This document shows, piece after piece, positions 1 to 61,400 of a stretch of 64,000 bases of DNA (positions are counted from its first letter, which is position 1; each line of letters opens with the position of its first letter). This stretch comes from Haliotis cracherodii (taxonomy: Eukaryota). The stretch spans positions 44,640,001 to 44,704,000 of the forward strand of contig NW_027266343.1 of NCBI RefSeq assembly GCF_022045235.1, given 5' to 3'. The notes beneath the pieces are model-generated. The model was given only the letters and a program-made list of their open reading frames with translations. It made no database searches and was not told where the DNA came from. A program made the translations under genes and the position numbers.

Positions 1-83
1 GAGTATGATTACAATTAAGGTTAGTATTACTTAGCAGGATTATATCTTTCAGAAACATGAAGAGTATAAGAAAACGAGCCAAC

Positions 84-171
84 CTGTGCTTTTGTGGTCT
101 GTTTTCAGTTGTCGACCTCTCCTGCTTGAGGTCGGTTTGCCATAAAATGATCCACTCTGTTTTTCAAATAC
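84..171 (-). CDS. PARP14: copy A exon 16, linker (VFEKQ...)
   Basis: tctcag|GTA...CAG|gttggc; phase 0 to 1. Confidence 0.78.
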
Positions 172-34800: not shown

Positions 34801-37800
34801 GGCTCCAACTGCTTCTGCATGCTCTTCATCCTTTTGTTCCAGACACAGTTCGTATACAGATTTGCTCATGGCAGCTACGTCTTCCTTTAAACCCTGGAAT
34901 AGGAAACATTCAAGCAAAGCTTATATGACATCCCCGACATCCAGTGATAATTCATATTAACTTTGTTACTGCAATTACTTCAAAACTGCTTTGGTGGAAA
35001 AAACATTGTGTTTAAGAAGATGTCAAGGCATACATATGTTATAACAGCTCACCTGTAATCTAATTCTACCTAAACGTGTGTTGATGTCTATGGAAACTCC
35101 ACGCTGCCTTGCGATGCTCTGTAGTCTCAAGATCTGCATAAGATACAACACGGTCCGTTATCAGCTCTTATAACTGAATCTGTTCGTGAACATTACATCC
35201 TATTAAATAAGGCATCATGAGGACTTATTGTGTTCTTTAGAAAATATAATTGAATACATACAATGGGTTTCAATAAAGAAATCTTTAAAAAATGGTTTGT
35301 AAAAGAAATGAACCAAAGTTTTGATGAAACACGTGAAGTAGTTGGAGTTGAGGGAGACATCCTTCCGAGAGCTCGGGTGTGTCACAACCTTTAATACGAT
35401 TACATGCATCCTCAATACATAATTTGTAATAATAAGACGAAATGCCGTCTTAAAACTTGATTCTACTTTAGGAATGTAATCAGAAAATGGACCTTTTTGA
35501 ACTAGAAAAAGAGAGATACAGAATTCAATATATTGGCAAAGAGAACTACCTTTTCTTCATCCAACGTCCGTATTGTGTCGTGTTCAACAGGTTGGTCATC
35601 GAACTCTTTGATACAAGCATTCTCCAATTTCTGCTTTGCAGACTGTATACATGTTTTGCTATCAGAGAAGAATTCCACTTCTACCCCATCAGCAGGAAGG
35701 TGTTCGGCGACATGTTGGCGCCGTGACTCAGTTTGACACTTTCCAGGTTGTGTTTTTGGCCTCGCACCTCCGTGGCCTACACGACAACATGTGGTTCAAG
35801 GTCATGTTGTACATTTTAAGAAAAGCTTTCAAACACACGTTATAGCCAGTATTTCGGTTAATACGTTCAAAACATTACCCATACAGCTTAACATACGGGA
35901 GGACGAAGGCGATGTAAACATGAAGCAGCCGAAGTGAGTGAGTTTGGTTTAACGCCGCTTTTAACAGTTTTCCAGTAATATCACGACGTGTCAGCTTAAT
36001 GTGGCATTTCCGGAAAGTCCGAAGTGATGCAGGTCTCTGACGTTTACCACTTCGATGAAACCCACGAGCACGGGTATGGTGCTGACAAACCTAGAAACAT
36101 AATCTGGGCAAACCCACAATCATAGGTTTCTGGCGTGCCCAAGGGACGCTACTCTGCACACCGAATCGCGGCGCCTAAGACGACTGGGCCCCCTAGCCCC
36201 CCGAAGCAGCCGAAAGAGATAAACCATGTTTCTATATCAATCATCGTACCTTTATTCTTGTCACCAAAGAAAGGCTTCTTTGCTATTCCTCGTCTGTTCA
36301 GCAGAGATGCCAGTAGGTCGTTGAATCGATTATACCTGTCTGGTTCGTAAAGGACGAGTCGTACTTCTGTGACATACTTCAAGTTAGACAAGTCTTGCAA
36401 TTCATCATAAAGATAGTCCATCAGTAGATGTTCCGGAACTCCCCCGAAAGGACCTACGTAAATTGTTATACTTGTTAAAAATAGTTCACTTTGTGTACAC
36501 ACGCATAATATTGATTCTGTGCAAGAGCATTTGAAAAATACACTGTTGGATAAAATGTTAGGGGATTGGAGAGTCCAAAAGTTTTCCATGCAACAAACTT
36601 TTCAGTGCTTTTTCAAAGTTCAAATCAATGGATGACAGCTTAAATTTGCATATCTTTACTCTTGCATTACAGCTCATATCACTATTAATAAGTGGCTACA
36701 GTTTCAGAGATGTCATATTTTCAATGTTGTGGAGAAAAAATCCATACGGACATAATGAAAAGAGAATGTAAACCATTTTAATATGATTTTTATACTTTGT
36801 ATATTGCATTTAAAAAATTACATTTGAGCTACAGATTAAAAACAAAGGCGTGGACCAATCCCAGTCATAACATCTTGACTTCTTACACTTGAGTATTTTT
36901 CATAAAAATTTCCCATCTATTTAGCCTATCTTAAATTATAATGCCTGAAACAAGACAACATGTTCTACAGTAAGTAAGAGTAAGTTTGGTTAACAACACT
37001 TTGAACAGTGTTTCAATGACATCAAAGTGTGTCAGCTTGAGCGGTAATCCAGTCTTTGACGTTGACCTCTTTTGTGAAACCCCAAAAGCACAGGCAGAAT
37101 GCTGACAAACCAAGAAACATAATTAAGGCGAATCTCGGTTCGAACCCACGATCACAGGTTTCTGTTAACTCTGAGGGATGCTAGTTTGAACGGCGAATTG
37201 CGGCACCCTTGACGACTGGGCCACTAGTTCCCCCTTTATTTAACTTAAGCAATCTTTACCTTGCCACAACACAATGCTTACCTTGTCCAAGAGCTGGAAG
37301 AGCCACAGATGAACAGTGCATTTTATCTGCCTGTTTGATGCAGGCTTTCAGAATGGCTTTAACGCCATGGCTGAAGTGAAAGGGGTCGTAATGGATAACA
37401 GTGTTGAATGTCGCTCCTGCTATTTGAGACACTGTTAAACCTTTGGAACGGAGATCTTTTTCTGTTGAAAAACGTAATGAGAATGTACATTCATATCAAC
37501 AATTGCAAAAAAGGTTTTGAAAACCCGGATTCAAATTCACATGACACATCTCTTCCATGGTTGTTTGCTGGCATAAGTAGATTAACATAAGCCATGCTTA
37601 CAAATATTCATTTCTGGTGTGATGTGGAATATGTCGGCAGATGATGCAATACCGATTAATCTTCATGGTTTAGCATATAAAACCTTTTCTACACAGCCTT
37701 TGTAATCAAATGAATATGTGTGCATGTCTGTTTATGATGTAATACTAATTTTTGCATATCCAAAATACATCGTGTACTGCCAAGAGAAAGGAAAGTGACT

Positions 37801-39235
37801 GTCATATCAAAAAAGGCAATTTTGTCGGCCATATTTTCAACCTTTTCACAACATTCTTTCCACCTTTCGCGCTTCCCCAAATAAGCCCTTATAATTTTTT
37901 TTTGAAAAAATACAGCCAGTCATGCATTTTCAGGGGTGTACAATCAAGCTGAATGCAAATAATATACATTATAACTTGTTCAAGTTTCTTTATTTCGTAC
38001 ATGTTTAGGCCAACGGCCCATGGTACATATATTGGTCCACAGTATTAATTATTGACTCACGGTAGATAAAGGCATAATACAAATATATTGCGGTATTTCA
38101 AATTGTATTTTGGTTACAGTCAGACATTAACATATTGAATTTATCCAGGGTAGGATGGACATAAAAATGTCATGAATATCTTGTTGTCTTAAATTATCAT
38201 AGGCTTTGCATATAAACAAAAAGTGGTATTCCACATAACCAAAAATACATAATTTACAAATCCTCAGGGTTCTAGGTACATTGTTATATCTTCCCGTTTC
38301 AATATATAAGGAATGCGAACTGCAACGAAAACGAGCTATTGCCTATCTAAATTTACCAATAGTTACAGCAGATATATATGGTTCAACACAAAATGACATT
38401 TTAAATAATGAATGTTAACACATTTTAGAGCTTTTAGAAAATTGCTGAATGCCAATCCTGTTCATAAATACATTTTAGACGTGATACAAATTCAGTAATA
38501 AACAGGTTTGGGGAATCAATACCCTGATTTTCCCAAACATAACCAAACCCAAATTTATTCAAGAGCAACTTGATTTTAGACACCCAATTACATTTACCAT
38601 TAGATGCTTCAAGAAACAACATATTGTAGCTCTTTTAGGGTAACGGGAATCGGGCATATTTAAAATCTTACACCAATATGAAATGCCGTGTTGATAAATT
38701 GAGATATATAAAGGATATCGTCCACATTCACCACGGACAGTATGTGGGAGCTTTAACACCTAAAAACTGCTTATAGCCTAACAAATGGACAGATTCAATT
38801 TCCTTGTAATTATCTACTCCCCAAATTGTCATGTATGTTATACCAGGTTTTCCAAAGCATGTCCTGAAAACGAACCCAAACTCTATGATAAAATACACTG
38901 AAGCTGTACGTTTGGAACGTTGGCTGAAATTTAAAATCCTCAATATTGGTAAAATATATTATTCACGAGTGGAATTGAATTATAGCCATGTGTATAACTT
39001 CTCCAGTTCCTTAACTAGCAGTTTCAGCTCACCTTTCTGTGTTCTGTTATCTGTTCCTACAGCTGGATACTTTCGCAAGAGAACTTGATTAATTGTTCCT
39101 GTAAGTAGGTATGTTACATAAATTATAGCTCACTTCACAGGAATGTCACACTGGTCTGATGACATCACTTCCATTTTAGATAACTCATCAAAATGTCTAT
39201 GTGCAGGACTTAGGGACCGACCATTTGATATCCCC

Positions 39236-39318
<83 letters not shown>

Positions 39319-42300
39319 GTGCGTGTGCTTGTGTGCACTTGCGTTTGTGTGTACAATTTATCTTTTTCGATAACATTTGTCTTTTTAACTGTCCATATTG
39401 AAAAATTAACCTCTCCTATCCAAATGATAAGCAATCAAAATTGTGGTTCAGTTTGGGTAGAACATGCTTACCCTTTTCGTGAACACCTGGTACAATCATT
39501 GATTCTCAAAGATCCTTTCACCACTATTTTGCCTTTTACGTCTTTTACGTAATGGAATCTGTTTCGGCTGATAATGGAGACTGGTTCTGAATTCTCAGGC
39601 GTTGACATTTTATTTATATTTTTCCCCAAAAAGGTTAAAGAACATCCGGGTTTTTTTCATATGACTGTATTTAATTTGTCATGACTGGTGGTTATGGCAA
39701 CAGACAGAGTTCCAATTGCGAGTGTTCTTTAACTCGTTTCGAGTAGTATATATTGGTAAAAAGATACTGACAAGGTGTCACAAATATTTGAAGTGGGAAT
39801 TACCTTTCTTAAGATTAAACTGTGAATCCACACTATTCATGATACAGTCCACGTTTTCTTTCAAAAGATCCCCATGCTTCAGGGTGAAGTGGATGTTGCC
39901 AAATGTAATACCTCCACTTACATCAAATGGCTCTTCTGTTGAATGAATTAATAGAAGGTGTTGATAAACTAATTATATAAGAAAACATCTATGATATACA
40001 CATACGGATGATGCAATTGCTTAGTATACATTTCATTTTATTCATGATAAGCTAAATCAGTCACTTGGCGGCTGGAATCTACATGTTCTTATCATGAAAG
40101 TGAAAGGTTGGGTATGATTACAATCAAGGTGAGTATTACTTAGCAGGAGTATATCTGCAGCTTTCAGAAACATGAAGAGTATAAGAAAAAGAGAGAACCT
40201 GTGCTTTTGTGGTCTGTTTTCAGTTGTCGACCTCTTCGGCTTGAGGTCGGTATGCCGTGAAATGATCCACATTGTTTTTCAAATACCTGAAAAATGAAAT
40301 CATTGCAATGTTCTTTACATGTGTGACTACATAAAACAGATCAATATTATTAGCCGTACATTATTAGCCTTTCATTAACCATACGTGTATGGTAATTCTG
40401 TTGTTAATTATTTGAATAGTCTTAGTCAATTTTTAAAGTTATCAATGATTATTGCTATATTTTCTTGATTAGACTCCAAATCGTGGTACTGTCTCCTACC
40501 TTTGCCACATCATTGTCTTTGTCATATATGACAATCTTGATATCAATAAGCGTGGTGTCAGGGTGGTTTCTCCAGAAGTCATCTATTGCTGTGAACATGA
40601 TTCTGGCAGATACATCTTTATCATATCCGGACAATCCTATTCCCAGTGTAGGGAATAACAGACTCGTGAGCCTGCTCTTGTCAGCTTCCTCCAGGCAGAG
40701 AGTAACAGCACGGTGTAGATTCTAGAGATACCACAGATACCTAGTACAGGTAACGAATTACATGCTACGTCACTGTCAACAATATCACTCCCTCCTTTCC
40801 TTTCAAGATAAACTTTTATTTGTGACCAACGTCCACAAGTTCCAGACATTTTGTGTTTGCATTTTATGTAATGTGACGCTTATCATATATGCTTCCGATT
40901 TGTCACTATCACCTTCAGAAAAAATGCAAGCATCTAGCTAAATGATTAAGATGCTTCTAAGTGCTCTTTCATTGAGCTGGTCAGTTTCTATTTGGGAATA
41001 CACCTGTGACTGCATATGTGACGAATGAGATAACCCGTTCGTGTATTACAATTGCTAAGTTCTACACATATTACAGACAAGAGAAAAAAACTTAATTCAT
41101 CTAATGCTCGTCCTGACGTATCTATACTGCAGTGCACTGTCTGGCTTCCAATTAATTTCTAATCAAACTATTGCATCCCAGTAAACTATATCACCGAGTC
41201 TGTTGTTTCTTCTCCTCATTAGTGATTTTTAGTCTCTGGTTGTTAATGCAGAATCAGGTAGATAACAATTAATTATCAACACAATGTGTGATTACAGTGA
41301 AGTCTGTGATTAGCTCAACAATGATCACATTTACCTGTCTTCTATTCCCAACATAATTAGTCTATTCTGAATTCGTTAAGCCCTTTTGATTTTTTTTATA
41401 ATTTCTTCTCTTCAAATAAATGTTTGCAGTCAATTTATAAAATGACTATTTAGTCAGCCTTCACGTGCTGTTACGTGAGCAGGAAAATGCACTTTTGGAA
41501 GAAATATAGCATGACTGTTCACATTTTAAATATGACAGTAAAACTTTCATTTAACTACCTCTTCGCCTCGAGCTCTGTTCCACGGTGGTATGACAACATG
41601 GTAGATTTCAGACGCCTGTAGAAGACCAGCTGATGTAACTGCCAAACTGTAAGTTCCATTTGGATATTTCCTTCGACATTCAGCTTCCAAAGCCGGACCA
41701 GCAGCATCTGATATAGCCTTAGATAGTCTGCCTCTTGAAAGATTGAGTTCTCGGTCCGTTGGATTCACAATAACGTCTGCCTGAGGGGTAAATTGCAAAA
41801 TATACATTTATATGTGCTAGACATAGGTCATATAAAATATAATCAACGTATTCAATAGTTTTAACTTATCTGAATGTGTGTACTTGTTTGTTTTGTTTTT
41901 TGGTGTGTGTGTTTTTTTACCTTAAATCTGGTAATTGATCCACGTGATAAGATCACCCTCCTCCCAGAATCTGAAACAAGATTATTCCTTCATTAGAATA
42001 TGGGTTCATTCTGTTTTACATTGCAACCAGCATATATACATTACACTAGCCTGTTCGCACTTGAGTTTGGGACAGACAAGTAAGTGGCTGACTCAGTTAT
42101 CTCCGACAAATAATAAACAATGATAACCAATGTCACAATGTTATCATGCAATCGCCATCTTCGTCGGCTCTTATCACAATCATTGGAAGGCATGAGACCA
42201 CGTTCATGCGAGCTGATATTCAGTATCGACATATTTGGTACACATGTATGTATTTATGGAGACTAAACAACTTCAGTGGTGCTCATCGAACAGAGACAGA

Positions 42301-45300
42301 AGTACAACTCACCCGAAGTTCGTTGTCCACCCGTTTTCATTTGCTGGGCTTGATCCTTAAACACCTGTGTTATCAATATCAGTGATTCTGATTAGAAACT
42401 TCAACACAGTCTGTGATGTCATGGTGGTTTTAGATCTAGAAATCCTCAAAGTAACCCAGGTCTGGTGTACATTTAGACGATACCATTAATTCTTCTAAAT
42501 TAATCAGCAACATGCCGGGGGGTATAGCTAACCTTATTTGGTGTTCTTGAACATGAGAAGTGAAAGTTTGCTAAACTAGCTCTTGTATCTTTAAAATCCT
42601 TCTACCCAATACTTACAGTGTTTTCTTTGCTGTTTCGGGTTCTCTCAATCGTTTGGGTGCATATTTTAATGATATTCTAAAATCACACCCATGCCTTATA
42701 TCGATGACTGGAAGAATATTTATTATTTGTAACATGCATAAAATATTTAAGTTCACAAGTTAAAGTCAAAATCATATAAACAAACACTGTGAACAGTGTG
42801 AAACATATTGTCAGTAACATTCAAAAAGGTTATCTGGAAAGGTTACTGCCCATATGATACAAATTTAATAACTTGAAATGTCATCGTATCCCAATTGCGT
42901 GGATCGATGCTCATGATATCAATCCTTGGATTGTCTGGTCAAGACTCGATTACTTACAGACCGCCGTCATATAGCTGGAAATTGCTGAGTGCGGCGTTAA
43001 ACAATCAATCAATCAATCAATAATAACCCGAAAGGTGTTTACAGCCCAAATAAAACAAATTTACTCACTTAAAGGTGTTTGCATTTTATGCAAAACCAGA
43101 AGCAAACCCATCACAATTCTTTCCTGAATGCCATCAGAAAAATAAACCCGTTTGACTTTACAAAATAAGGTAACGGCTGTTCTTTATTCATTTTTATATT
43201 TGTTGTCTAATGTAGTCCCATATCTCTAACTACCCCCAAAACATGTCATATGACCTCCATGACTTCACCAAAAGAAAACTAACAGAAGCAGTCCATATTC
43301 GCCGCCACAAGCCATCAATCAACAGAGATCAAGGCTATTTCATCCCATCCGCCTACTATGAACTCATCAACCAATAATCACCTGTTTATTGGCTTCATGC
43401 CCCTATTGGCTTCTAGCTATGTGTTTTCTGCCCATCGTGTTGTGATAGCATAATCCCTTTGTTGTCACACCTACCTATGTTATCCCACTCATGTATGCCC
43501 TTGTTGTTACTGTTAATCCTCTATTGTTATCATCCACTTGCTATATATATTCTACACTATGTCCCTCATTCAGTCTTGCTTGACAACGGTATAAGGATCT
43601 ATACCGAAACGTCGCCTTTTACAGTATTAAAGAAGTTGTTATCCATAAAAAAATTGTGTCTATCTTGTCATGTCATATGAACTTTTAGTTTCAGGACATG
43701 ACTTCCCAAACACATCCCTAACACAGCACAAGTTTGAAACAAAAGGTCAGTGACAAATTTATAATCGCAGACATGAGATGCCAGACAATTTCAAATTACA
43801 ATCAAAGTAGTGTAATTGTAAATACACTCTTAACTGTGTTTATACAAATAAAGCGATACAACCATTTCCATATCCAATAGAAAGCACGATTCCAACTATA
43901 ACATGAGCATGTGTTTTATGAATCACTATCAAAGTGATTCTATTTCCATTGCTATTAACAGATGGCATGACCTTGTCACACAGCAAGTGCAGAGGAAAGT
44001 CGGAATCGTACAATTTCTTGTGGCAATAGAGAGCTTTTGTCGCTTCTATTTAAGTGTTATGAAATGTATCACAATTGTCATGAGTTAAATGTTTGGACAA
44101 TTAAATTGTACAGCCAAACAAAGGAGACAGGGTTCCAGTACAGCCAAACAAAGGAGACAGGGTTCCAGTTTAATAGAAGCTATATCACCAGATAATATAA
44201 TGACTTTTTCATGAGCTGAGATAAGGTTGTGCAGCGATTTCACAGTAGCAATAATCGCAACCATAAACGTAACCATAACATGCTGGTTAATTCAGACCTT
44301 GACCAAAGGTACTTTGTGACAATTCGAAAATTGGTGACTTATATGATATATTTGAATTATATAATGTTCATTTTAAGGCTTTTCATCAGTTTGAAAGATT
44401 CCTGATTATTAAATTTTGCTGAAGTTTATGATTCAACCTAATCGTGTGAGTGAGTTGGCGTGGTCTTGGGACTGCCTTTGAACAGTGTTTGGTTATATAT
44501 CAATGTTAAATGACTAGCCATTTACATAACAGTATTACCACTACATTTGTTTGCGATCAAATTCAGCTGTTGGGATCAATACCAATACACAAAATCACAA
44601 AACAATATAAATAGATATATATGTGGTGGAGGGGTATATGTGGTGGAGGGGTGAGGGTGGGGCATTTACAATGTCACGGGGGTGGGATGGGGAATGAGTG
44701 AGTAGGGGGAAGAACCTTACAACACAAAGTTACGATAAAGGCTCTGGATGAGGTGATGAAAAATGCAAAAACACAAGAACAGATAGCCACAGGGGAAAGG
44801 TTCAATACATATTTTATAACTACTGGGTGTCATGAATTTATTATTTGATGGTAGCAATAGGTTCCCAAAAACAGATTCATCATGTATACACATGCACAAA
44901 AGTTAAGCGCCACCATATTCACAGTCTCTTGATTTCACGTGTGGGAATCAGAAATACGAAATATGATGATGTATGACTGAATTAGGCTTCTATAGTTTCG
45001 TGAACCCGTGAAGTTTGTCCAGATACCACAAGAAAAGCGTGCCTTTCGTGTTCCTGCAGTTCCCCTAACCTATAAATAGTGAAATTCAAGTTTCAGACAC
45101 GTGGTTGCATTTTGCTCCTGTGTAAGATTCCCTTTCCAATAGAGGTTGAAAATCAGCCATTGTGAGGAGAAAGTTAACGAACGCTGAAAGATGGCAGGTG
45201 ATAGGCATGTCAAATGCTGGCATGTCATGCAGGGCCTTTGCAAGACAAATGGGTCGTCATCACAGTGTTATCACTCGTTTGATTATCAAACATGGTCAAT

Positions 45301-48300
45301 CCAATGATGCCAATGACGGGCATAGGTCTGGTAGGCCAAGAAAGACCTCTAACAGAGAGGATAGACGTCTTTTCAGAATAGTCAGATGAAATCCATTTGC
45401 CACTTCAACAGATTTAAGACTGCAGTGGATTACCCATCAGAGACTCTCGACGATGACCGTAAGGCGTCGCCTGGTTATAACGCCAGAAGTCCAGTAAAAC
45501 GTCCTCAACTGACTGAAAGCACAAGCGGAATCGTCTGATATGGGGTCGTGCCCGTAGTCGGTGGAACTTGGCCAACTGGAGGAGGATCCATTGGTCTGAC
45601 GAGTGTCGAATGGTGCTACGAACTGTTGATGGCCGAATACGCGTTTGGAGGCAACATAACACTCGTTTTGCTCCAAGGAATATCCAGAAGACCATAGCAT
45701 GTGGCGGGGGGTCTGTCATGAGATGGGGTTGTGTTTCCTTCAGCTGCAAACTTCCGCTGGTGACAATTCGTGGAAACCTGAATGGCCAACAATACCAAGA
45801 TGCCGTTCTTCATCCAGTGGAAGTCCCTCAGTTAGACAACCATCCTCTTCAGACAAGACCTGTTTACATGGACGACAATGCTAGACCACACAGATCTCGG
45901 GCAGTTTTGCCTTATTTGCGCCAAGAAGCTATTGCCAATCTTCCTTGGCCGTCCTGTAGTCCGGATCTTAATCCGATTGAGCATCTCTGGGACATTCTTG
46001 GCCGGAAAATCAGACATCGATCTCCCAGTTCAAAATCTCCCTGGACTTGAAGCTGCACTTCATGAAGAATGGATCCGTTTGCCTCAGAAAAGCATTCAAC
46101 GACTTGTAATGTCCGTGGATCATACCCACGTTACTGACGTTTCTGTCTCTGCACTCCCTAGGGTGTCTATGTGACACCTGATATGATCTGCTGATATCAT
46201 GACAGTTACATGACAAAAAAAGTTTTTCAATGTTTTCTGATCCTTCAATTTCTGGTCTTCGGTAAAATTCCTTTCTGCTCATATTCTTTTGGAACACAAG
46301 ATAAACTTGCTTTGGGACAACTTTTGCATCACATGAGGTTTACATATACGGCTTATAACAATCGTACATCTCGTTTTAATAGTCATCATTATGTGCCAAA
46401 AGTAACAAATCAAGACATGAACCTGGTAGTTAGCATACCTTATGTATATGGTTAAAAAGCTTGATTTAACGCCCTAGATTACATAATTAATATTTTATTG
46501 AAGACTTTTACATAATAGGTGAAACCTTGCCTGGCATAGGTATTAGTTGTTTTTTTTTTTGTTTAACGCCGTACCCAGCAATATTTCAGCTGTATGACGA
46601 CTGTCTGTAAATAATCGAATCTTGGCCTGATAATCAAGTCTTCGTTTACCATGAACATTGATATATGCAATTGACATTCATGAACCACTCATGAACCTGA
46701 CCATTCGATCCCGGTAGTCACTTTTCGACAAGAATGAGTTGCTGACGTTCTTCAACGGGGCATATGTGTCTGTAATGAAAAGATATAAAAAAGATTATGT
46801 GTAAAGAAATACACCAAACCTGTATGTTCTCCCTATCCCTGGGATACAGGATGACTCTTATGTCTGTGAGGGATGTATTCGGGCACTGTGACCAGAAGTC
46901 GTGTATGGTTGATAACATAGCCTCGGCTACCACATCTCGAGAATATCCTCCAATCCCTGTACCAAGTGCTGGCATTGCGATGCTGGAACAGTTGTGTCTG
47001 TCAGCAGTTGTTAAGCATTCCTTAACTATGTCTGCCACAGCCTGCAAAAGAGATTTCTATTTCAATTGAAACCCACATATAGAAAGTGATATTGGGGCAG
47101 ATATTTTCGACGAGCACATTTATATAATATATATCAATAGAATGAACACGAAGGTCATGAAAACTGTTCATAATGCCGCCTGCCATGATGTCTTTTGGCA
47201 AAGCTTTTTCCAGCATAATCAACTTTGAATACATCTATTTCAAAGATAAAAAAACAACGACAGTAGGTGCGCAATTAGAGAAAGAGATGGTAAAATAATG
47301 TATGCATCCCCAACAGTTCTGAAATGGTGCTTTCTTTTGGTCACTGCAGGTGCCTTTTTTCTGTACCTGGGTTTTATGGGAGTACTCTAACTGTAGTTGA
47401 TAGCCTATACCCGAATATTTATCAATGCAGTAATACAGTTAGGGCTTATAGATATATGGATTACCGATCGATATGCTTCTCTGTGAAGGCACAAGACATG
47501 AAGGTCAAACTTTCACAATTATTTTATTTCAGGTGGCAGGGGCATTTTATTTGATTCAAACCCTGCTCTTGCGATCATACACCTGTATACTAAGTTTTAC
47601 CTTTACCTTTACCTCAAGTACAGCTTTACCTTTTTGACAGTTGTATTTTGTGTGTGTTGACGAAGAAAGGGCATTCGCAGGGGTGTGGATGTCTTCATAC
47701 AAACATGATACACCTTTTTGCACTTCAGTTTGAAACCAGGTGTGACAACAATTGAACCAGGGTTAATGCCTTGTGGGTATATCCTGCAGGCAGACAATAA
47801 CTCTGGACCAGCGGCTTCAAGAATGGCTGTCGAAACTGGCCCTGCATTTTGTAAATTCAATTCCTTGTTCGTAGTGTTGACGATAACATCTACCTGAAAA
47901 ACACAAAATACATGTATGTGTTCTCGTGTGTATAGGTGTTTACAAAATGTTTACAAAATATTTACAAAAGTGAATCTGAATTCTTCCCAGACCTATCACA
48001 ATATACATAAAGAAAATAGATTATTATTTGGACAGGCTTCATTAATTGTCTTGTCGAGTCATTCCTGCTCTCACAGTATTAATAGCAGCATACAAGAAAA
48101 ATGGTGTATAAACTGATACTGTAAACCACAGCCTGATGAATTTGTTTCCGAAAATGTTTTTCTTATCTACATAACAGGGAATTAGCACACCTGTCACAAA
48201 TAACTTGAAATTGTACTGTATCAGTAAACATTACCATTTTCGAATGTGAGATTTTTATTTGTTATCAAAATACATATTTGAAGCCCTGACTAACACACAA

Positions 48301-49404
48301 TCTACATTGACACCTCTATATTTACAGAAAAATTCAACGAAATTATACATCATCGTTTGTCATCATCTTTCATAAAGTTTGGCATGATACACATGAATGC
48401 TAAGATGATACAGGTGAATAAAGGTTTCATGATGTTTATACCTTTTGTTCAGCAATGCTTCCTTCAACCAGCTTTATTTTATACCCACACTTCACATCTG
48501 ATAGAGCTACAATGAATAAATAGAAACTGCATGAAATATATGAATGTGGTATAACTATTAAAACATGGGACTTCGTTATTGCCTTGGGTCCATGATGCAA
48601 TACTGTAGTACATACACTCATAGCTTGTCTTGCCATGTAGTCAAACCAGAGAAAAAATAGGCCTCGGATAACGATGCCATTCACTATTTCAACTTTTTAT
48701 ATATTATCATATGCAGATGGTTATTAGTTTTCAAGTTGACATACCAGACACTCTTCTCTGTGTTCTGGGGGATGATTGTTGCATCTGAGCACCTGTCCCG
48801 CCTTGTAAACGTGGTTGTATGTGAACATTTGATGCCCCTAAGACGTCTTGCAGCGAGTTTACAAAGCTGTCCACAGTTTTGCCGTTCACTGTACAGAAAT
48901 AAACGTCCTTGATTGTACTGGATTTATGTTTCACAAAGTAGTCTCTTACTGCAGTGGTTATAACCTTTGTAGCAGCATCTTTTGGATATCCAAAGATTCC
49001 AGCACTCAAAGCAGGTATTGCAATAGAGCTCCCCAGTCTGTTGTCTGTAAGCTCCAGACTTCTTGTGACAGCTTCTCGCAATTTTTCCTTTTCTTTCTTC
49101 TTTCCTCCTTCCCATCTTGGACCTACTGCATGCACAATGAAATCACAGCTACCTTTCAGTCTTCCTGGCTTCGACAACACAGCATCTCCATCCAGAACTG
49201 CACCATACGAATTCACGTGTCTGGTACACTCATCTTGCACGTCTTTTCCAGCTGAAATATGTTCTAAAATATACTTTCTTCTCTACCAATTATGGATACA
49301 TACCTGGTAAATCACACTTGGCATATTAAAATATCTGTATAACACGTCATTGACTGTAAACATAATCCGTTAAAGTAAACAGTTTCAATGTAGAAAGATT
49401 TCGG

Positions 49405-49488
<84 letters not shown>

Positions 49489-52400
49489 CTTTTTTTAAAA
49501 TGTATTACCTTTGTCAACAATGACTTTGGCAAGACCTCCACAGTGATCTAATCTCTCATTAGCAGCATTGACAATGGCACTGACTTTCATGGTCGTAATG
49601 TCTCCTTCTCTTACATAGATCTTCCTTCCACCCGCTATGTTTGAGACAGCCACTATGGTGGATACTGGCTCTTGAGTGGCTGCATTACCTTGTCCTACGT
49701 GTTTGTCTTCTTCCTCCCCCTTCTCTTCATTAACAACCTCTATGATACATCTTTCAACCTTTTCTACATGAGAAATAATGTGTCCTCCTTGTCCTGTTTT
49801 GAGCATTCTGGCCATGCCAGCTTTTTGTGACAGTTCCTTGTGTGTGATTACTTTGTCGGCCAGGAAGGTCAGTTTCTTTCGGCATTTGTCAATTCCTTCT
49901 TTTGAGCCATTAATAGTGAACTCGGTTCCATTCTCCTGGTATATAATCCGGACATGATAATCCTTCAAATCTTTAGCAATTGTTGCAACTTCTTCTTTGT
50001 AGTGGGCCAGAAGGAATCTGTGCTGCCCTTTAGTAAACGAGAGACGTGTTTCGTCTACGGTGTTGGAGGACAAAAACATTTTGACTTCAGCATAAACACA
50101 TTCCACATCATCCTTGATCCCCACAATGAGTAGATAATTCTTGTCTTGGAGATTATGAATACTGAAGGTGTCAGGCAAATGATCAATCAATGATTTCCGT
50201 AGGCTTTCCCACGATTCTGATTGCATTAGTAACTGCATTTTTCCTTCAAGGGGAACAACTCTTTCCACCACAGTATTAAGGATCATTTCACCAACTTGTC
50301 CCACTTTTTCTGGAGTTGTTGAAATTACTTCTAGTGACGACTCTTTTGCACGCCATGCTGCTACGATGCCAATTTCCTTCAGTTTGTTCCTCAGACCATC
50401 CTCAACTGCCTTCTTCTGAAGCTCAGTTAGTTGCTGTTTGGAAACATGTTCAATCTCTGAAGTTTGCGTTCCATTCACCAGTTCATACATTTTAATCGTT
50501 GCTTCTTTCACAGAGGTTTCTGGACCAGACAGATGGACATCATTTGCATCAAACCTCGCACTCACTCCAGGGAATTGTTTTATAATCTCCTTAAAACCGC
50601 ACTCTCGGAGAAATTTGGCTTTAAGAGGTGCTAAAGGTTTCACAATTTCGGGATTTGGGGGGCCTTTTGAAGATATTCCATGCGCAATATGTTTCTCAAC
50701 TTCTGCCTTGACTTCATTAGCTTTCGTAGGAATGCCAACAATTGCTACGACCTCCTTGTCAGTGTACATCCTTACCTCTGTTTCATCAACATTGACCTGC
50801 ATTAACATTGTATCAATGTTGCCCTTTACTTCCATGGGAATCTGAACCAAGAGATGAAGAACAAATTCACTTATGACCGACCTAGCTGAACTCTTGTAAT
50901 CCATTCCATCAGCAGTTGTAGTTCCACACTCGCTCCCGACTTGACGAAATACGAACAATTGGTTGGACTCATTCAACTTTAATGACAATCCGTAACCACC
51001 TAGTTTTTCTTGAATGTTTCTGAGTACTTTGGGTGACTTCTTCAGAAACCGTGGTACAAGTTGGTCAACACCTTCAAGGGGTATGGCGCCTGACATCTGA
51101 GCTGGTGTGGTGTCATTGGACTCAGGTGACTGCCATCCGACACATTTGTGATGGAGGTAGACTTTTATATTTGCTTCTCCAAGTGTATGCACTCTCTCGC
51201 TGATCTGCTCAACAACTGAGAAGAAAAAAACAGGCAAATATTCAATATATCATTATGTTTCTTTCATGCTTTGTTCTAAATGTATGCATGTAGTATTGAT
51301 ATTATTGAAGCTATCACTATGCAATCCATGGCAAGCATTATTTCTCATATCAGTAATTTATACTGTAAATTCACGGCTCCGAATCTTAAGCGGACCATGT
51401 ACTGTTGCCCCTTGTTCTTCCTCACCTTTGTGGTCAGCGAGATGGACAAGGTAGCATCCACGTTGATCTAATCCTTCCACTTTGACTACCTCTGAACTCG
51501 TATCATTTCCACATTTCCGGGTTTCAAAGTAATCTGAAATTGTCTCCGAGGCAACTGACAATGGGACGCCCTCGACCCTCAGTACTCTGGTGGCAGGTAC
51601 CTTGAACACTGTCACCGCTTTCGTTTTGAAGGGTTTGTTGTTACAAGCTGACTGGAGTTTGGATATATCTGAATGAAGTATGATATATAATTTGTTTGTT
51701 GTTTGTTTATTGTTTAACGCAGTACTCAGCAATATTATTAGCTAAATGACGGCGCTCTGTAATCGAGTCTGGACCAGACAATCCAGTGATTGATATCATG
51801 AGAATTGATCCATGCAATTGGGATACAATGACATGTATCAACCAATTCAGCGAGCCTGACAACAATAACCCATTAGTCTCCTCTTATACCGCAAGCATGG
51901 GTTGCTGAAGACCGGTTCTTCACGGGAGGTATGTGCAAGTACAAAGATAATAGTCAAACATAGCCGTACTTTATCCTCAAAGGTCGACAAAGTGACCATT
52001 TTATTTGATTATTATGAATTCTTCAAGTGATTTATTTGGCAAATTCTAAAATATAACTTTTTATGAAGAATACGATGAACACAGATAAAACATAACCTAT
52101 TTTACACATAATGTATTTAATAAATATAAAAAAATAATGGACAGTTCTTTGTTTTCATGAGAATTTTTAGATTAGATTTTTAGGGAAATTACTAGAAGGC
52201 TGTTTGGAATATGATAATTACACACTATCTAGGTGGTATCCTTTTATAGTTCCAAATATTTGATTTAAAATTGAGATTTGATTATGAGGTTATTTTATGT
52301 ATTACAAACAAAAGCAAAAATACAGGCAGAAGGAAACATCTTTATCCTTTTAATAATTATAGTATTACTTGCTAATAATATGTCGAAATCAAGATATGTA

Positions 52401-55400
52401 CCACGGGAGCCAATCGTATTTACATAAACTTCGATATTTCTCCTTACCAATAGGGTCGCTGAAAGTTACCAACAGCACACCATCTTTGGCTCCTTTGTTG
52501 ACTCCCTTCACATCAGCATTGGCCCTTGCTTGAAGATAGATAGAAAGGTCCTCTGAGTCCTTATCGAGGTGTGCACCTGGATACTTCAAAAGAACTTTGT
52601 CCACATAGACTGGCGTTGGTGTATGAGGTCTTATTTCCGCTTCTTCCTTTGCTATGGTTACTCTTCCCTTCTTGACGAGTCTCTGTGCCACTGTAAATAT
52701 TTAAAAAAAACAATATGTTGTATCTATTACTGAACTCTAAAGGTATATACATAAATTCACTCTTTCACATCATTTAGTGAGTGAGTTAAAATTTTAATCT
52801 CATCGGCAGTCACATCATTTAAAGGAGGAGTCGCAAATGTTATGCCTGAAACAGACCAATGATATTTTATAATTTTAAAACAAAGTGATCGAGGTTAGTT
52901 GTATTAAATAAGTAATTAATTAACTATTTGTAATTTACTGAATTTTCAAGTTGTGTACAAATAACCTTTCAAATATTTACATCATTTCTTTTGTTTCCCA
53001 TGTCGGAAGAAATCTGTGACGTATGTCTACAATCATCCCCATAATCCAGTGTATCATATCCCTATTCCATTATCAGAAATAGTTTGACTTAATCACTACA
53101 ATACCTGAAGTGACGTGACCATCCCCGTCACACTTATTGGTATAATTCTCACAATATATTTCTCTCGCACATGAGTATAATTTGTAACGTCGTCTATTTT
53201 TAGTGTGCATAACCTTCTGGTCTCAAAACGAATGAATGGTGACGAATACAAATATGGTATTTACGTTTAATATTAATTAATATACTGAAAAAATCCCACA
53301 GAATGGTCCAAAATACACAGAAATCAGAAAGAGTGAGCTTTGTTTGATGCCACTTTAAATTGGCGCTGACAAACCTAGAAACATTAATCTGGGATTCGAA
53401 CCCACGATAAGTTTGTGGGACGCCTAAGGGACGCAACTCTCCTTTTTATAAAATACATGAATTGATTTCATTACATTACACGTACCGAACCTAGAAAACG
53501 TACCTGCAGGATCTTTGAATGTAATGAGAAGCATGTTATTTTCCTCGTCATTTTCGAAGTGTTCTACATCTCCTCCTCCTCGTCTTTCGTTTTCAAAATA
53601 ATACTTGAACTTGTCCAAACTTCCTGATGCAAAGTCACATCCATGAACTTCAATCGTTCTCCTGGCAAAAACCAGTTCGTCTGCATCGGGATACTCTAAG
53701 TGGTGAACTGGAACTGTTTAAACACTTGTTAATCCTTAACACAATCAAGGAAGATGAATTTGCTTGACTTTTTACAATCTCAGAAATTCTGTCAAAAGAT
53801 TTGTACACCACAATCCCACATGACAAACATAGGGAAAAACATAATTCCTTGATCCATGTTTTTTGTTTGTTACAAAACGTAGTGATCATAGATACAGTTA
53901 TATATCTATCAGAGGATCGGGTCAATTTGTCAACAACGAAAACAAATGTCATCTGAAGTTTATTGGGAAAACAATATGTAAAATGTTTGACTTCTTCGTT
54001 GATAACGTATATGTAGAATTTGGGGGTAAGGCATTTAGGGAAGAGGTGGGCATCCACATGGGTACCAATTATGATCCCCTGATCTGTTTCTGTGCATTTG
54101 AATCAGAATTTCTGCTCGGATTGGCAAAGTCAAAACAAGGACATTTGGCCATGAAGTCTAACTTAAGTTTAGCCAATTTCCTTCTACTGATTTACCCACC
54201 TGAACTGATATAAACACCAGTGAGACCACTTCATCTGTTTCATATTTTTATCTATTCTCCACAAGACTGTATGAAAAGAGGGATGACGTCATCTTTACCT
54301 TTTTGTGGAGCAGTATTCCTCCAGCCAACATTTCACAACTTTTGAGAGACAATCGAGCATGTTCAAAGAGCCTCATGCGACTCTTGCTAAGAAGTTGTTT
54401 GATCAAGGTTACAACATTCAAGTCCTCAATCAAGTTTTTTTAAAACGGTTTTATGACATTTCCAAATTTGACGTATCAGTGACAAGAATGGTGTCAGATG
54501 CATTTTCCTATTTTTACTTTAACATATGTTGCTGAGTTTGTTTTTGGGTGACCAATTGACTTGCCTTTGCATCTTTTGTGATGGGTGTAAACGGTAGGGC
54601 AGTATCCGCTCGCCCTTTCGCGAACACCTGGTCTCATCACTATTTGATTGTGATTCATAAACACACGCTCGAGATATAGTCGGAATCGTACAATCGACTT
54701 TCATGAACATAAAAAGGGTTTACTATTCAAAGGAATAGCTTTTCACTATAGCTTGGGTTTGTTTGTTTGTTTTCTTTATTCAGTGGAAATGAATACAATC
54801 CCTTACATACCTGACATACCCACGTGGTTAAGGATTATTGGGCCTTATCTTAGCAACTTCTTTCAATAGTGAATGTGACGGTGGGATAGGGTTTGTGCAC
54901 CAGAAAAGAAGAAGGGTGTGGAAGAGGAGATAGGATAGCAATATCTAAGTCAAGAATTGGTCATTTTTTTGTTTAGCTCAACACTGTCTGTGGTATCCAG
55001 ATATGTTTCTATGTTGTGATAATGTTTTATGAAAAATACTTGGCTAAAGACAAGAATAATTTTATTAACGAGAAGTGTTAATGTTTTCAAAGTATTAGAA
55101 CGGTGGTTTTCGAGAATGCTCAATCAGGTTTCTTGTCTCATGAAAGAAAGGATGTTCTGACCTTTCAGATTCACAAACACACCCTTTGCAAGTGTTATCC
55201 AATACAGTACTGAGGGATAAGGTTTATTAGTTTAAAATAGAGACAATGTGCTCCTTTTAATTCTACTACTATTCTTAGGTTTGCAAATGTTTTCAAGTGC
55301 CCAGTATCTGTAAAAAAATATCTTTCAAATATATCTAACACCACTTCCAAACCACAAAAACATTTTTATGACGCCTAGAATTTTAAATGGTTCTTTTGAC

Positions 55401-58400
55401 TGGTGCAATGGTATATTGGGACATAAATGTTCATTTGAATTCTTCCTTGAGCCATTCCAAGTAGCCATATTTTGGTCACAATTGATTCTTAAACACAAAG
55501 CTATAGCAAATGTTCTTAGAATACTTATAAATTCTGGGAGGTTTTCTTCTCATCCCTTTAAAGTAAAGTTGGCATCATCTGCATATTGGATTATTAAAGT
55601 ATTCCATTCATTTGATATCAATACCTTTTTATAGATTTGCTACATTTGATTGAGCTTGAAAGTAGTTCAGCACATATAGTAAATATATGAATCCAAACTC
55701 AACACTATCACTAAAAACATTTTAAACATCTGCAGTAACAAGTAAGCCTGGTATTTCATGTATTTCACAATATTTCTAAATTTTGTATAATATTCGTTTA
55801 TTATCTCCAATAAAACGGCCCTTAAGAAGACCCTATTGTGTCTCACTAATCATATCTGGGAGGGAATGTTTCATCCCATGGGCTATTGTTCCAGGTGCTA
55901 TTTTATAGTCCATGTTGAATAAACTCACTTGACGTCAATTTTTCAAGAAACGTCGATCGCGACCTTATTTAGGGGAGCAGGTAATGATGCCTTGTCATTG
56001 TATTTATAAGCATGTACATATACCAACGTTGTATTAATATCCTTTTACAAAGTCTCATATGTTGGGACAAGGAGTATGACATGCTTTTTAAGATCTGCAG
56101 ATCCGTGAACTAAGCAAAACTAAGTGTAAGTGCTTATTGGATTGTTCTCACCTGTACGTTGCATGGGCAGTTCAGGTGAGTCGTGCATTTCTTGAGGACG
56201 TGGCATAGGGACTGAACTGACTGGGTGGTCGACGGTGATGGACGATAATGGTTGTGTGTATCGAGTAGGTTGAGGTAAACCACTTCCGATGTTTGGCTGA
56301 TTTTGAAAAAGAGGAACTGGCGCAGGTGGTTGTCCTGGGAACCTAGGAATCGAACCATGTGGATACTGGTAATAAGGTGGCCAGTAGTAACCCTGGTTTG
56401 GATTCACAGGATAATGATTCCATGGCGGCGGCCATGGGACTCCTTGAAACGCAGGTGACTCAGCATAAAAAGGCATCCCTGGCGGGTGCGTGGGACGATA
56501 ACCAGGATGAAGTGGCTGCCTTTGTGCAAAACCGTCGGAAAGGTGTTCAATTCCGCTTGTGTTTGGGTAGACCCTGTTCAATGACACGAATGTTCCAGTA
56601 ATACCTCCCCTCCCACCAGCCTCTGGGTTATCTATATTGTAGTTCATTGACTCAAAACCTGACATGGGCGGTTCTTCTAGTATATCCTGACCATGTTGAT
56701 AATCTCCTGGAGATGACCCGAAAGCATTGTTGGACCTCAGAGAATGCATCGTACCCTGTAATATTGTAATGTGAAAAATAATCAGTGAAGCAAGGTTTCA
56801 GATATTTGTAATCTCTAAAGCCCTTAAACTTATTGTCGGCGGTTTTTTAACATGCTATATAATGTTATATATAATAAATACATTACTATTCAAATATTTT
56901 CTGCATAACTACAGATACCAAATGTATTAACAAATATGAACGCAGCTTACTAAAGGTCCATACATTTCTAAATCGGCAAGAATCAATGTACTTTTGTGGA
57001 ATATTGTTGCAATACACAACAGTTAAACGTACTTTACACAATGTTACTATGACCCAAAATACCCGCTTAGAAGAGTATTTCAAACTGTTTCACAAAGAAA
57101 ATCCTCAAGAAATATCATCATAGCGAGAAACACACATGCCAAAGTTCAGGTTCCCCAACTCTGGAAAGTTCATGGAAGATTGTCATATATAACACTGGAG
57201 AGACCATAAGAGCAATATAGTTCTGTCATGTGGTCATTTTGAAAATTAGATTCGAACCTCTTTAAGGCAATTAGGTGTCATCATTGTTGGGAAAAAGTAT
57301 GTGAAATTTCAGCTTTATTCGTCCAGCTGTGAGGTGATGTTTGCAGTGTGAAGAAAATACATTTTGGAAGGACTTGGGCGAGAAAACCCTTTCCATACTT
57401 ATAGGAAATTTACTCTGAATGCAGTTGATTGTTCGATTCTGACTGTATAATCAGCATGTGTTTATTGCAGGTCTTCGCAAAAAGTTAAGCGTATCCTGCC
57501 TCACCGGTGGCACCCGTCACAAACACATGCAAATGCAAGTTAATTCTTCCCCATGACAAACAGGAAATTCTCACTGATGCGTACAATTTGGAACAGTGTT
57601 CCACATGTCTTCCATAAAACGTTTTCAAAGCTTTGATGAAACAACTTTTGAAGCATGGTCAAAGAGCAAAGGTCAAATAAAGGTTCAAATTTAACCCTAT
57701 TACTGACTGTCCACTTACCAAATATTATTAAATTTTAAATATAAAAAGGTTAAAATTTAGATTATTGGAAAACCCAGAATATGTGTGTGCCCAATTACAT
57801 TACATGGCCTCTGTATCAGGCCAGATGAGTTAAACAAAAGACAAACCAGAAGGAAATAAAGCGACAAATCCCTTTCCATATCTGCATAAAGCAGAGTCGA
57901 TTGTACAATTCCGACTATATCATGAGCATATGTTAACTGAACGCTAACTGAACCACACATAACATAATATAAGACATCGTTTCATGGGAAATATTCAGTC
58001 TGACCATGTGTCTGTGCTGTATATACTATGAACATGGATTAGAGAATATAAAGACCTTACATCGAACCTGATAGGGAAAGTGTTTTAGTGTTTCACATAC
58101 CTCAGGTTCCGAAGCAGGTGTCCTCCATTCTTGCGGCACATCTTCAGCTCCACAGGGTGATACAGTCAGCTGACATCCTTGGTAATTTGTAAATACCTTG
58201 ATTGCATTTGCATCTGCAATGGTTAATGGGTTGAAACATATAACTTGTTTACATAGATTGAGTTTATGAAAACTTGTGTTGATAAGTGTAAACATCAATG
58301 TCTTCAAGCCATTGTTACCAAGGCATAGAGCATCTAGGGATCAACAATCTGTCCAGGTAGCCAAAAGTACCTAGTGCCCCTTCTTACGACATTCGTGTCG

Positions 58401-61400
58401 CCAAGGTTACTTTATGGAACAAAGTCTTTATGGTCGTGATGGGTTAAGCGTTAAAATGTCAGAATGCCCGGGATGTCCACCCTGTCATGTGTTGCCCAAA
58501 GTGATAAAAATCTACCACTTTTAACACTCGCTTTGTCATGTATGTACCAAAGAAACGCACATCTCAACTTCGAACCTCATACAATTTATTTATTTGCAAA
58601 TATAAATACACATAGTACTGGAACGACGTGTGTCCAAAAATGTTCCATTCATCGTTTTGGGATACGATCACTGAACAGAAACTGTTCATATCTATGAGAC
58701 AAACTTGCCGGAACGTGTCCTTCATGGCACATGACAAGCACATGGACTGTTGGGTCTCAAAGGTAATGATACAACAAACGTTCATCAGTTGAATGTGTGA
58801 CACCGAATTCACCATGTCCAGATTAGGCACAAACGATTGTATATCTAGCCTTGGGCATGACTGAAACTGGTATCATGGCACAAGGAGTGAAACATATTAC
58901 GATCTATCGCATGAAACATATTCAAGAAGTGTATGACATAACATCAAGTGCGTGTAACAACAGGTGTTTAGAGACTTTCGGGGATTATTTCAGATAAAAC
59001 TACACTATGAAACATGATCATCGTTTATTGCCATATGCACAAATATCATTTTCATGAATCCATTGACCGGGTTTTTAGATGGTTCCAAGCATGAATTCAG
59101 AAGTTAATACCCCAGTGATCACTCGATAATGACATATTTCCACCGAATTCCACTCCTTCACCTTGTCATGTCCCAAGTGCTAGTAGCACCTACTCACAGT
59201 ATGCCCTTTGGGGGCACGGGGGGCTCAGTCGCCTGAGGCGCCGCAATTCGTTGTGATTTCTGTCCCTTTTGCAAGCCAGATACCTATGATTGTGGGTTCG
59301 AATCCCGGTTCGCCCCTATCATGTGTCTAGGTATTTCAGCAACATACACGTACTCGTGTTTTTCACCATAGTGGTTTTCCTCCCACAAGCTGAACATGTG
59401 TTCAAAGCGGGGTTTATCTCAACTCACTCACTCACTCACTGGTATCCCCTTTAATAGGAGGGCAGTAACATCGATTAGTGTAAGGCCCACACCGTGTAAA
59501 TTGACTTTTGTGTAGGACATAGATGTCCCTCCGGCCCAGCACCTGAGTTTTGTGTGGGGACTTATATAGAGGATATTATATGTGTGTTCATGTCATACTA
59601 TGTCTACGACACGAGCGTTTAAATTCCGGTATTTCCCGAGCGAGAGTGAAAATGAACACGAATATAATGTTCTTTTTATTACCGAAGAAGATGTCTACAT
59701 ACAGATTCGAATTTTAGTGTTTACCTATAAGGACAGAAAGTCGCAACAGCAGCGGAACCACAATTTGTCGAATGACGACAAAAATCTTCAGCTATGACGT
59801 CGTTTATAGTGTGACGTCATTCCGACCTCACGTCACAATAACATTCGTGACCAAATCGTGTTATTCCGTGACAAACATGTTACGGAAAGGGGCGAGTAGT
59901 GAATAAGATTCGAATGACATGACCAATGCCGTCCGGATAACGGAAACAGTATAGTGTTGTCTCGTGACGTAATATGGACGAAAACCCTAGGGCACTTATG
60001 ACTTTTCTGAACTCAGATATGCGCCTGTGTTTTGTGTAACGATAAATAATAGGGGCTATTATAATCGTGTTGATGCCATAGAAAGGATTCATTTATATGT
60101 TTGCAAAAAGTATTTAGGTGTTAAAATAAACACTTCCAGCTTGGTGGTGTATGGAGAATGTAGAAGATTCCCTCTCTATGTATATTCAAATATAAAAATT
60201 ATTAAATACTGGCTGAGACTTATTGACATGCCCTCATATAGATTGCCAAAACAGTGTTATAATATGATGATAGTTTATGATAATAATGGGAAAAGAAACT
60301 GGGTTACAAGTGTTAGAGAATTACTTTTCAGTTGTGGCTTTGGTGATATTTGGCAAAACCAAAATGTGTATTCCAAATCAATGTTTATACTTTCATTAAC
60401 CCAGACAATTAAAGGATATTTATTTACAATCTTGGACTGCATCATTGACTCTAACAAACAAATGCTTTTATTACAAAATGTTTAAATCAGAAATAATTAT
60501 GAAGATTATTTATCAAAAGTTAATGTTAAAAAATTCCGAACGGCTCTTTCACGTTTTAGATGTTCTTCTCACGACCTTTTAATAGAAACAGGGCGCTATG
60601 TAAACATTCCTCGTGAAAAAAGAATCTGTAATCTATGTAGTTTAAACTCAGTAGAAGATGAATTTCATTTCTTACTTGTATGTCCAGTGTATTTACACCT
60701 TAGAGAAAAATACCTGCAAGCTTATTATTACAGGTACCCTAATATTATTAAATTTGTTACATTGCTGTCAAACACAAAAAGAAGTATCTTACAAAATGTT
60801 TCCATGTACATATATTATGCCTCTTTATACCAACAGAACCTTATGAAAGAATAATCTTAGCTGCTTGGTATTAGGAAACTATTGTGTATATACATTAAGT
60901 ACATATTTATAGATATTTGCCATCTGAATAACTACAAACAAAAGAGTTAGAAATGGTATTAAACTACTAGGCTGTCATATGATATTGTGGGACGCGATAT
61001 TACAAATGGTCAAGTATAGTTATATGTATATGAAATGATATGATGTGACATGACATGATGTGAAGTGTTGTGGTGTGATATGATACATGAGGGGATATGA
61101 TGCAATATATTATGTGTATTATAGAAATTGTGTAAATACTGTTTTTTAATGTACATATTATATGGCTTGCGGTCTTCCAGTGTTGAATAAATATTGATTG
61201 ATTGATATGAAATAAATTGGCATGGAATGACATGGCATTATATGGTATGATATGATAAGATATGATGGGACAAGCTATGACATTGCTAATGTGTTGTGTG
61301 ATATGACATGTTGAAATGTGATACAATATAGTTGTGATATATGGTACGATGGTATGTATAGTATGTTATGATAATGTTAAATGAAATATTACTATATAGT

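Follow-up and report, generated by a model that had tools for sequence, protein, structure and literature searches.

In intron 11 of two tandem PARP14-like genes of the abalone Haliotis cracherodii lies a 47-nt segment that is best read, from its score, phase, length, acceptor, uniqueness and neutral drift, as a dead first-strand micro-exon of a macrodomain. With little better than even confidence, we regard it as the dead first micro-exon of a macrodomain cassette that was lost between macro 2 and macro 3. The two copies are:

44169..44215, minus strand, candidate dead macrodomain first-strand micro-exon of gene B, 47 nt, phase 1 to 0, no GT
5522..5568, minus strand, the same segment in gene A by A-B comparison, with a TAG at the second codon and a weak acceptor

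The copy in gene B (44215-44169) translates as (A)HEKVIILSGDIASIK and that in gene A (5568-5522) as (A)*ENVLILSGDIASMK. The preliminary description had reported such a segment in intron 11 of both paralogues, with a stop in A, and this was borne out, on the minus strand. It had also called the segment AG-flanked, which holds for the 5' side of both 47-nt copies but not for the 3' side, where CT follows; the reported absence of a GT donor is thereby confirmed in both genes.

The window, the whole stretch of 64,000 nucleotides that was analysed (G000:C80:44640001-44704000), contains two tandem minus-strand PARP14-like genes, A and B:

31612..62723, minus strand, gene B, PARP14-like, four macrodomains, 26 coding exons (P0001)
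1..26556, minus strand, gene A, PARP14-like paralogue (P0003), running about 8 kb past the left end of the window

The large exon of gene B is a 100% match to P0001, a protein named PARP14-like of Haliotis cracherodii. Mapping of P0001 and P0003 onto the DNA gave 26 coding exons each, and the exon numbering used earlier agreed with the P0001 map. The cluster of P0001 and P0003 also includes two H. rufescens proteins, and a domain profile built in this analysis counted four macrodomains in all four proteins. Pfam analysis of the host proteins returned RRM, KH, Macro, WWE and PARP, in that order; with tandem macrodomains and a PARP catalytic domain, together with RRM/KH and WWE, the host genes are PARP14-like macro-PARPs. 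The order is like that of human PARP14 (PDB 3vfq; Pfam PF01661, PF00644, PF02825, PF23085), in which RRM, KH, tandem macrodomains, WWE and PARP follow one another, and the best PDB match of the host protein was PARP14 macro 1-2 (3vfq, E 2.9e-57). The first-strand motif is GDI in macro 1, GSI in macro 2 and macro 3, and GDL in macro 4. Of the host macrodomains, macro 1 alone carries NAAN and GIF motifs. The Asp in the GDI motif is the residue that binds the ADP-ribose adenine. Identity between A and B is patchy (10134-15218 against 47614-52751, and intron 11), with long blocks at 92-96% and others at 70-85%, a pattern that gene conversion between the two genes may have produced.

Each of macro 2 and macro 3 comes from a four-exon cassette, composed of a micro-exon (phase 1 to 0), a middle exon (0 to 0), a C-terminal exon (0 to 0) and a linker (0 to 1). 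Being phase-symmetric, such a cassette can be gained or dropped without a frameshift. In gene B the exons concerned are:

48442..48506, minus strand, exon 9, live first-strand micro-exon of macro 2, 65 nt, phase 1 to 0
47630..47893, minus strand, exon 10, middle exon of macro 2 (P0001 mapping)
46820..47056, minus strand, exon 11, C-terminal exon of macro 2, with a second acceptor at 47041
42313..42364, minus strand, exon 12, linker exon, spliced to exon 11 in contigs of X1, X2 and X4
41921..41970, minus strand, exon 13, live first-strand micro-exon of macro 3, 50 nt, phase 1 to 0
41559..41780, minus strand, exon 14, middle exon of macro 3 (P0001 mapping)
40500..40721, minus strand, exon 15, C-terminal exon of macro 3 (P0001 mapping)

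The two acceptors of exon 11 lie 15 bases apart; P0001 takes the upstream one (47056), which adds KSLLQ, and the downstream one (47041) is used by P0002 and an X1 contig.

Exons 9 and 13 both run from phase 1 to phase 0 and finish seven codons past the conserved Gly. The segment likewise runs from phase 1 to 0, with a strand and a G-x-I motif, and ends seven codons after its Gly, so that the agreement with exons 9 and 13 in phase and position within the fold stood up. Its length falls among those of live micro-exon candidates (mostly 44-65 nt), and a phase-1 AG acceptor lies at micro-exon distance (47 nt), good in B and weak in A. The segment lacks the following middle exon starting xDxIVN and the C-terminal exon. 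As it lies downstream of exon 11 and upstream of the live linker exon 12, the linker of a lost cassette would precede it, and the middle and C-terminal exons would come after it. Its GDI had been singled out as kept where macro 2 and macro 3 lack it; these two do read GSI, but GDI is nothing special, since GD occurs in 10 of 26 live micro-exons of this genome, more often than any other form.

Likeness to a macrodomain was scored with a first-strand profile built from 340 non-self segments, taken from other proteins. Segment B reached 16.2 bits and segment A 14.2, against 16.7 for live exon 13, 20.5 for live exon 9 and a lower quartile of 16.7 for the training segments; a 50-segment profile gave 14.0, 12.9, 15.6 and 18.1 bits for B, A, exon 13 and exon 9, respectively. 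On a DNA profile from paralogue exons, the segment ranked first in intron 11 (7.9 bits, compared with 7.3 for exon 13), a score that is not independent of the protein-profile score. Among 1,721,744 windows scanned, 59 scored at least 14.2 bits, and 56 of these read as live macrodomain strands, two were the segment copies and one was another match. Pfam gave no match in the 68-residue open frame that contains the segment. A run-on exon of macro-1/macro-4 type, suggested by an in-register QFN after the segment, was rejected: the next 16 residues scored -34 to -35 bits, a background level reached by 14-16% of all windows.

The main rival to a lost cassette is a chance look-alike, in which AT-rich unique intron DNA spells a hydrophobic strand and GDI..K behind an AG and was copied by tandem duplication. 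We consider this possible but not probable. Comparison with shuffled sequence had been set beforehand as a refuting test, and its outcome was divided. When only the first-strand sub-profile was used, the segment beat the shuffles, the score of B being reached by 14 of 5000 block shuffles of intron 11; it did not when any 14-column part of the domain was allowed, since 19 of 40 shuffles then reached the observed 14.5, a non-significant result in this broad look-elsewhere test that speaks for chance. The signal is real for the narrow first-strand question and weak for the broad, whole-domain question. Chance is also favoured by the expectation over all DNA scanned (2.9-4.4 windows at 14.2 bits and 0.9-1.6 at 16.1), which is in keeping with the two independent non-exon matches seen, by the 12.8 of the 16.2 bits of segment B that come from GDI and the last K, and by the copies in A and B being one event and not two. 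On the other side, score, in-phase AG and acceptor coincided only 14 times under one model and 11 times under another in 99.8 million simulated positions, a rate of 0.11-0.14 per Mb, equivalent to about 0.0006 in intron 11 and about 0.1 in the full 864 kb on a single strand, with thresholds set post hoc at the observed values. The segment also lies on the sense strand within the macrodomain array, and none of 8 inferred changes falls at a second codon position (P 0.039, biased by how the segment was found).

Further copies in the genome, and remains of the other exons of a dead cassette, were also looked for. A DNA search with 391 bases found the segment in A and B only, together with two short matches about 120 bases downstream of it. 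Sequence patterns for the segment likewise occurred in A and B only, and the 665 bases upstream are unique in the genome as well. A dispersed repeat, the other explanation that had been put forward for checking, was accordingly rejected: there are two genome copies, and the low-copy match starts about 120 bases downstream. Several features surround the segment:

44109..44168, minus strand, two tandem 30-nt copies at the would-be donor, the second absent from contigs of organisms B and C
44216..44240, minus strand, acceptor-like stretch ending in AG in gene B, in the top 7.3% of 850 intronic AGs
44222..44708, no strand assigned, block present in B and missing in A six bases before A's copy (A-B alignment)
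45150..46050, plus strand, broken DDE transposase (HTH_38, DDE_3) in intron 11 of B, upstream of the segment in gene direction (domain match)
3030..4983, plus strand, broken reverse-transcriptase element in intron 11 of A, downstream of the segment in gene direction (domain match)

Much of the space of intron 11 is taken by repeats. Neither intron 11 yielded remains of a middle or C-terminal exon, with the domain HMM at maximum sensitivity and with sliding sub-profiles, nor any linker remains ranking on the linker profile; this lack of further cassette remains favours a chance look-alike. A strong acceptor-like AG shared by both genes (B 44743, A 5602), located about 530 bases before the segment in B and followed by GTAAG, was examined as a linker remnant and set aside as a weak lead, the sequence after the AG failing to rank on the linker profile. 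No intact homologue of the segment was found in this genome or among the proteins retrieved. Word-index searches and a full HMMER search showed a gap, with no protein above about 48% identity outside the H. cracherodii/H. rufescens cluster, and protein searches returned no five-macrodomain orthologue of A or B.

The acceptor of segment B scores 1.5 bits, the same as that of live exon 9, and the acceptor of segment A is weak, after loss of the upstream block. Gene A lacks these 487 bases just upstream of the segment, and in organism C part of them survives in an A-type contig, so the block was likely deleted in A, and the loss is likely recent. At the 3' end, the would-be donor site, scored without GT, gave -2.5 in B and -6.8 in A, below all 45 true donors, which also trained the donor matrix; therefore, a breakpoint at the very end of the exon has to be assumed. 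The site looks random, a further point for a chance look-alike. The third base of A at this site is also found in organisms B and C, no change at the would-be GT bases occurs among the rows listed for runs X19, X2 and X15, and gene A has no in-phase GT donor with a fair score downstream of the segment.

Contigs of runs X1, X2 and X4, taken as RNA by guess, no listed run being recorded as RNA, splice 46820 to 42364, from exon 11 to exon 12, across the segment. One X1 contig (depth 7) links exon 8 to exon 10 (48745 to 47893) and omits the 65-nt exon 9, a skip that would cause a frameshift and end the protein after macro 1; exon 9 is included in X2 and X4. These contigs bear on the idea that the segment is still used, either as a rare alternative last exon or as a frameshifting "poison" exon entered from exon 11, leading to a truncated macro 1-2 protein or to decay. 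In phase 0, an open frame of 11 codons does run to the same TAG in A and B, a fair acceptor is kept in B, and the X1 contig shows that micro-exon skipping is possible in this gene. We nevertheless hold continued use to be very improbable. No joint or loose end was seen at the segment edges in 10 contigs from 4 runs, so that zero contigs splice into the segment while three runs splice across it, among the joints listed and given that contigs drop rare forms; the segment drifts at the intron rate, the upstream acceptor context is lost in A, and three of the five A-B changes in the phase-0 frame are radical. The segment appears to be without function.

A and B differ at 6 of the 47 positions. Elsewhere they differ by 0.8-4.6% in five live exons, by 3.9-7.4% in five nearby intron stretches and by 7.9-10.6% in the flanks of the segment, which drifts at the rate of an intron, without constraint, over few sites. 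It is unconstrained and has been dead at least since the A/B duplication. The third residue is Lys in B (1.8 bits) and Asn in A and organism F; the Lys of B is likely a later change, and with Asn in the other two, the older state of the segment scores no higher than B does today, a point against a fossil exon.

The segment could also have arisen as a stray copy of part of a live micro-exon (exon 9, exon 13 or one in a paralogue), with no function at any time and no cassette lost. A single event would account for the presence of this exon alone, and the family duplicates often. The distances make such an origin improbable. Among 41 rows, the best DNA identity of the segment to a live strand was 22 of 42 bases, where the nearest strand was wrongly chosen for some rows (a macro 1 strand taken for exon 10), and the mean between live strands was 18.6; the 12 live strands closest to the segment include neither exon 9 nor exon 13. 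In simulated decay, live micro-exons kept 14.2 bits in 48% of cases at 0.07 changes per base, 22% at 0.15 and 2% at 0.4, and no simulated copy at 22/42 identity to its source held that score. Flank similarity to other loci was found neither in 864 kb nor by genome DNA search. Degenerate codon patterns gave no source exon, one pattern matching A and B only and the other giving 2 matches (10.1 and -0.1 bits on the first-strand profile) compared with 3 in the control; a source since deleted is still compatible with this result. The score loss in simulated decay implies that the death of the segment must fall in a narrow time window, and, combined with the best identity of 22/42, that a fossil would not be a recent copy of exon 9, exon 13 or a sampled paralogue. 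If the segment is a fossil, we infer that it was a coding exon in its own right for a long time and died only a little before the A/B duplication. Its distance from every sampled live exon points to an exon that once worked and not to a recent copy, and it is on this that the lost-cassette reading mainly rests.

Cassette number has expanded in this family. A search with exon 14 found 54 middle-type exons in the genome, and the 864 kb fetched around such exons revealed one to four cassettes per gene. This large macro-PARP expansion, on contigs C80, C23, C5 and C11 of the assembly (G000), comprises 86 Macro matches along with the 54 middle-type exons. The preliminary description had proposed that macrodomain number both expanded and contracted; the expansion is shown for the family, and contraction in this gene is inferred only. 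Among 194 proteins examined, full macrodomains numbered 0 in 2, 1 in 6, 2 in 50, 3 in 103, 4 in 28, 5 in 4 and 6 in 1. The four five-macrodomain proteins are from eel, octopus, brittle star and cod, and none of the 194 was an abalone protein with five macrodomains. Two further observations concern other family members. A plus-strand gene at G000:C80:44771000-44797000 (L020-L023) encodes P0037, which has two macrodomains only, nearest to macro 3 and macro 4 of A and B, with WWE and PARP and without macro 1 or the KH block; it is a PARP15-like truncation that arose in abalone. At G000:C23:3126000-3156000 (L056-L058), a gene carries an internal repeat of two macrodomains and a PARP-like stretch, common to H. 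asinina P0203.

A paralogue with three cassettes at G000:C80:12.81-12.84 Mb, and H. asinina P0057, have the first strands GSI, GDI and GSI, the same order as exon 9, the segment and exon 13. However, the tree does not place macro 2 and macro 3 with the first and third cassettes of this paralogue, and the segment is no nearer to its middle strand than to other strands. In a 61-row tree, built without 7 near-identical genome rows and most non-gastropod rows and after 5 cassettes with a missing or short exon had been dropped from the comparison, a wide distance separates macro 2 from macro 3 of this gene, and the deep order is not fixed by the tree. A neighbouring gene 76 kb outside the window has two macrodomains, the first of which groups with macro 3 (85/95), and the top non-self identity of macro 2 (44%) is a tie between the first cassette of the three-cassette paralogue and one other domain. 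AU tests reject neither a group of macro 2 with cassette 1 (p 0.47) nor one of macro 3 with cassette 3 (p 0.14). Collinearity of A/B with the three-cassette paralogue is therefore a lead only. It seems unlikely, although conceivable, that the ancestor had five macrodomains, with a GSI, GDI, GSI run as in this paralogue and P0057, and that the middle cassette, which alone retains the adenine-binding Asp, was excised shortly before A and B duplicated. Of the ancestral fifth cassette proposed earlier, the dead micro-exon survives as the best reading of the segment; against the proposal stand the missing donor trace, the missing remains of other exons, the missing five-macrodomain orthologue and the broad correction, which removes the signal.

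Under the lost-cassette reading, a third cassette between macro 2 and macro 3 would have been in use for long enough to diverge widely from its neighbours. Shortly before or about the time of the A/B duplication, a deletion beginning at the 3' end of the micro-exon would have taken the donor and the middle and C-terminal exons, and the low-information linker may have decayed or been lost. Exon 11 would since then have been spliced directly to exon 12. Loss of the donor would have been favoured, because an exon of 47 nt disturbs the reading frame when placed between two phase-0 ends. The segment would now be functionless and drifting, and the lost domain would have read ADP-ribose without catalytic activity, like macro 2 and macro 3.

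Tandem exon duplication followed by loss leaves pseudo-exons, that is, exon-like intron pieces that have lost a splice site and evolve neutrally. The segment differs from typical cases in having neither a close source exon nor a donor trace. Among openly accessible papers, we found none on the exon structure of abalone PARP14. One study describes three macrodomains as ancestral, with macrodomain 1 alone active (PMC10221186); on that account the fourth macrodomain is a gain, and the abalone genes differ in having four, with two macro-2-type cassettes and a possible remnant of a third. Turnover of whole macrodomains, through partial duplication and loss, has been described for PARP14/PARP15: PARP15 arose from PARP14 macro 2-3, and one macrodomain is lacking in an elephant/manatee form (PMC4038475). 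As presented there, this turnover rests on comparison of intact genes, whereas the abalone case rests on one intronic remnant.

Since macrodomain turnover in vertebrates is already described, the abalone case adds an example and a mechanism rather than a new principle. If real, it would be direct sequence evidence that macrodomains are lost as well as gained in invertebrate PARP14-like genes, by whole phase-symmetric cassettes, and the segment would date one such loss. If the five-macrodomain ancestor also existed, this would be a datable case of an immune PARP retuning its array of ADP-ribose readers by the loss of an exon cassette.
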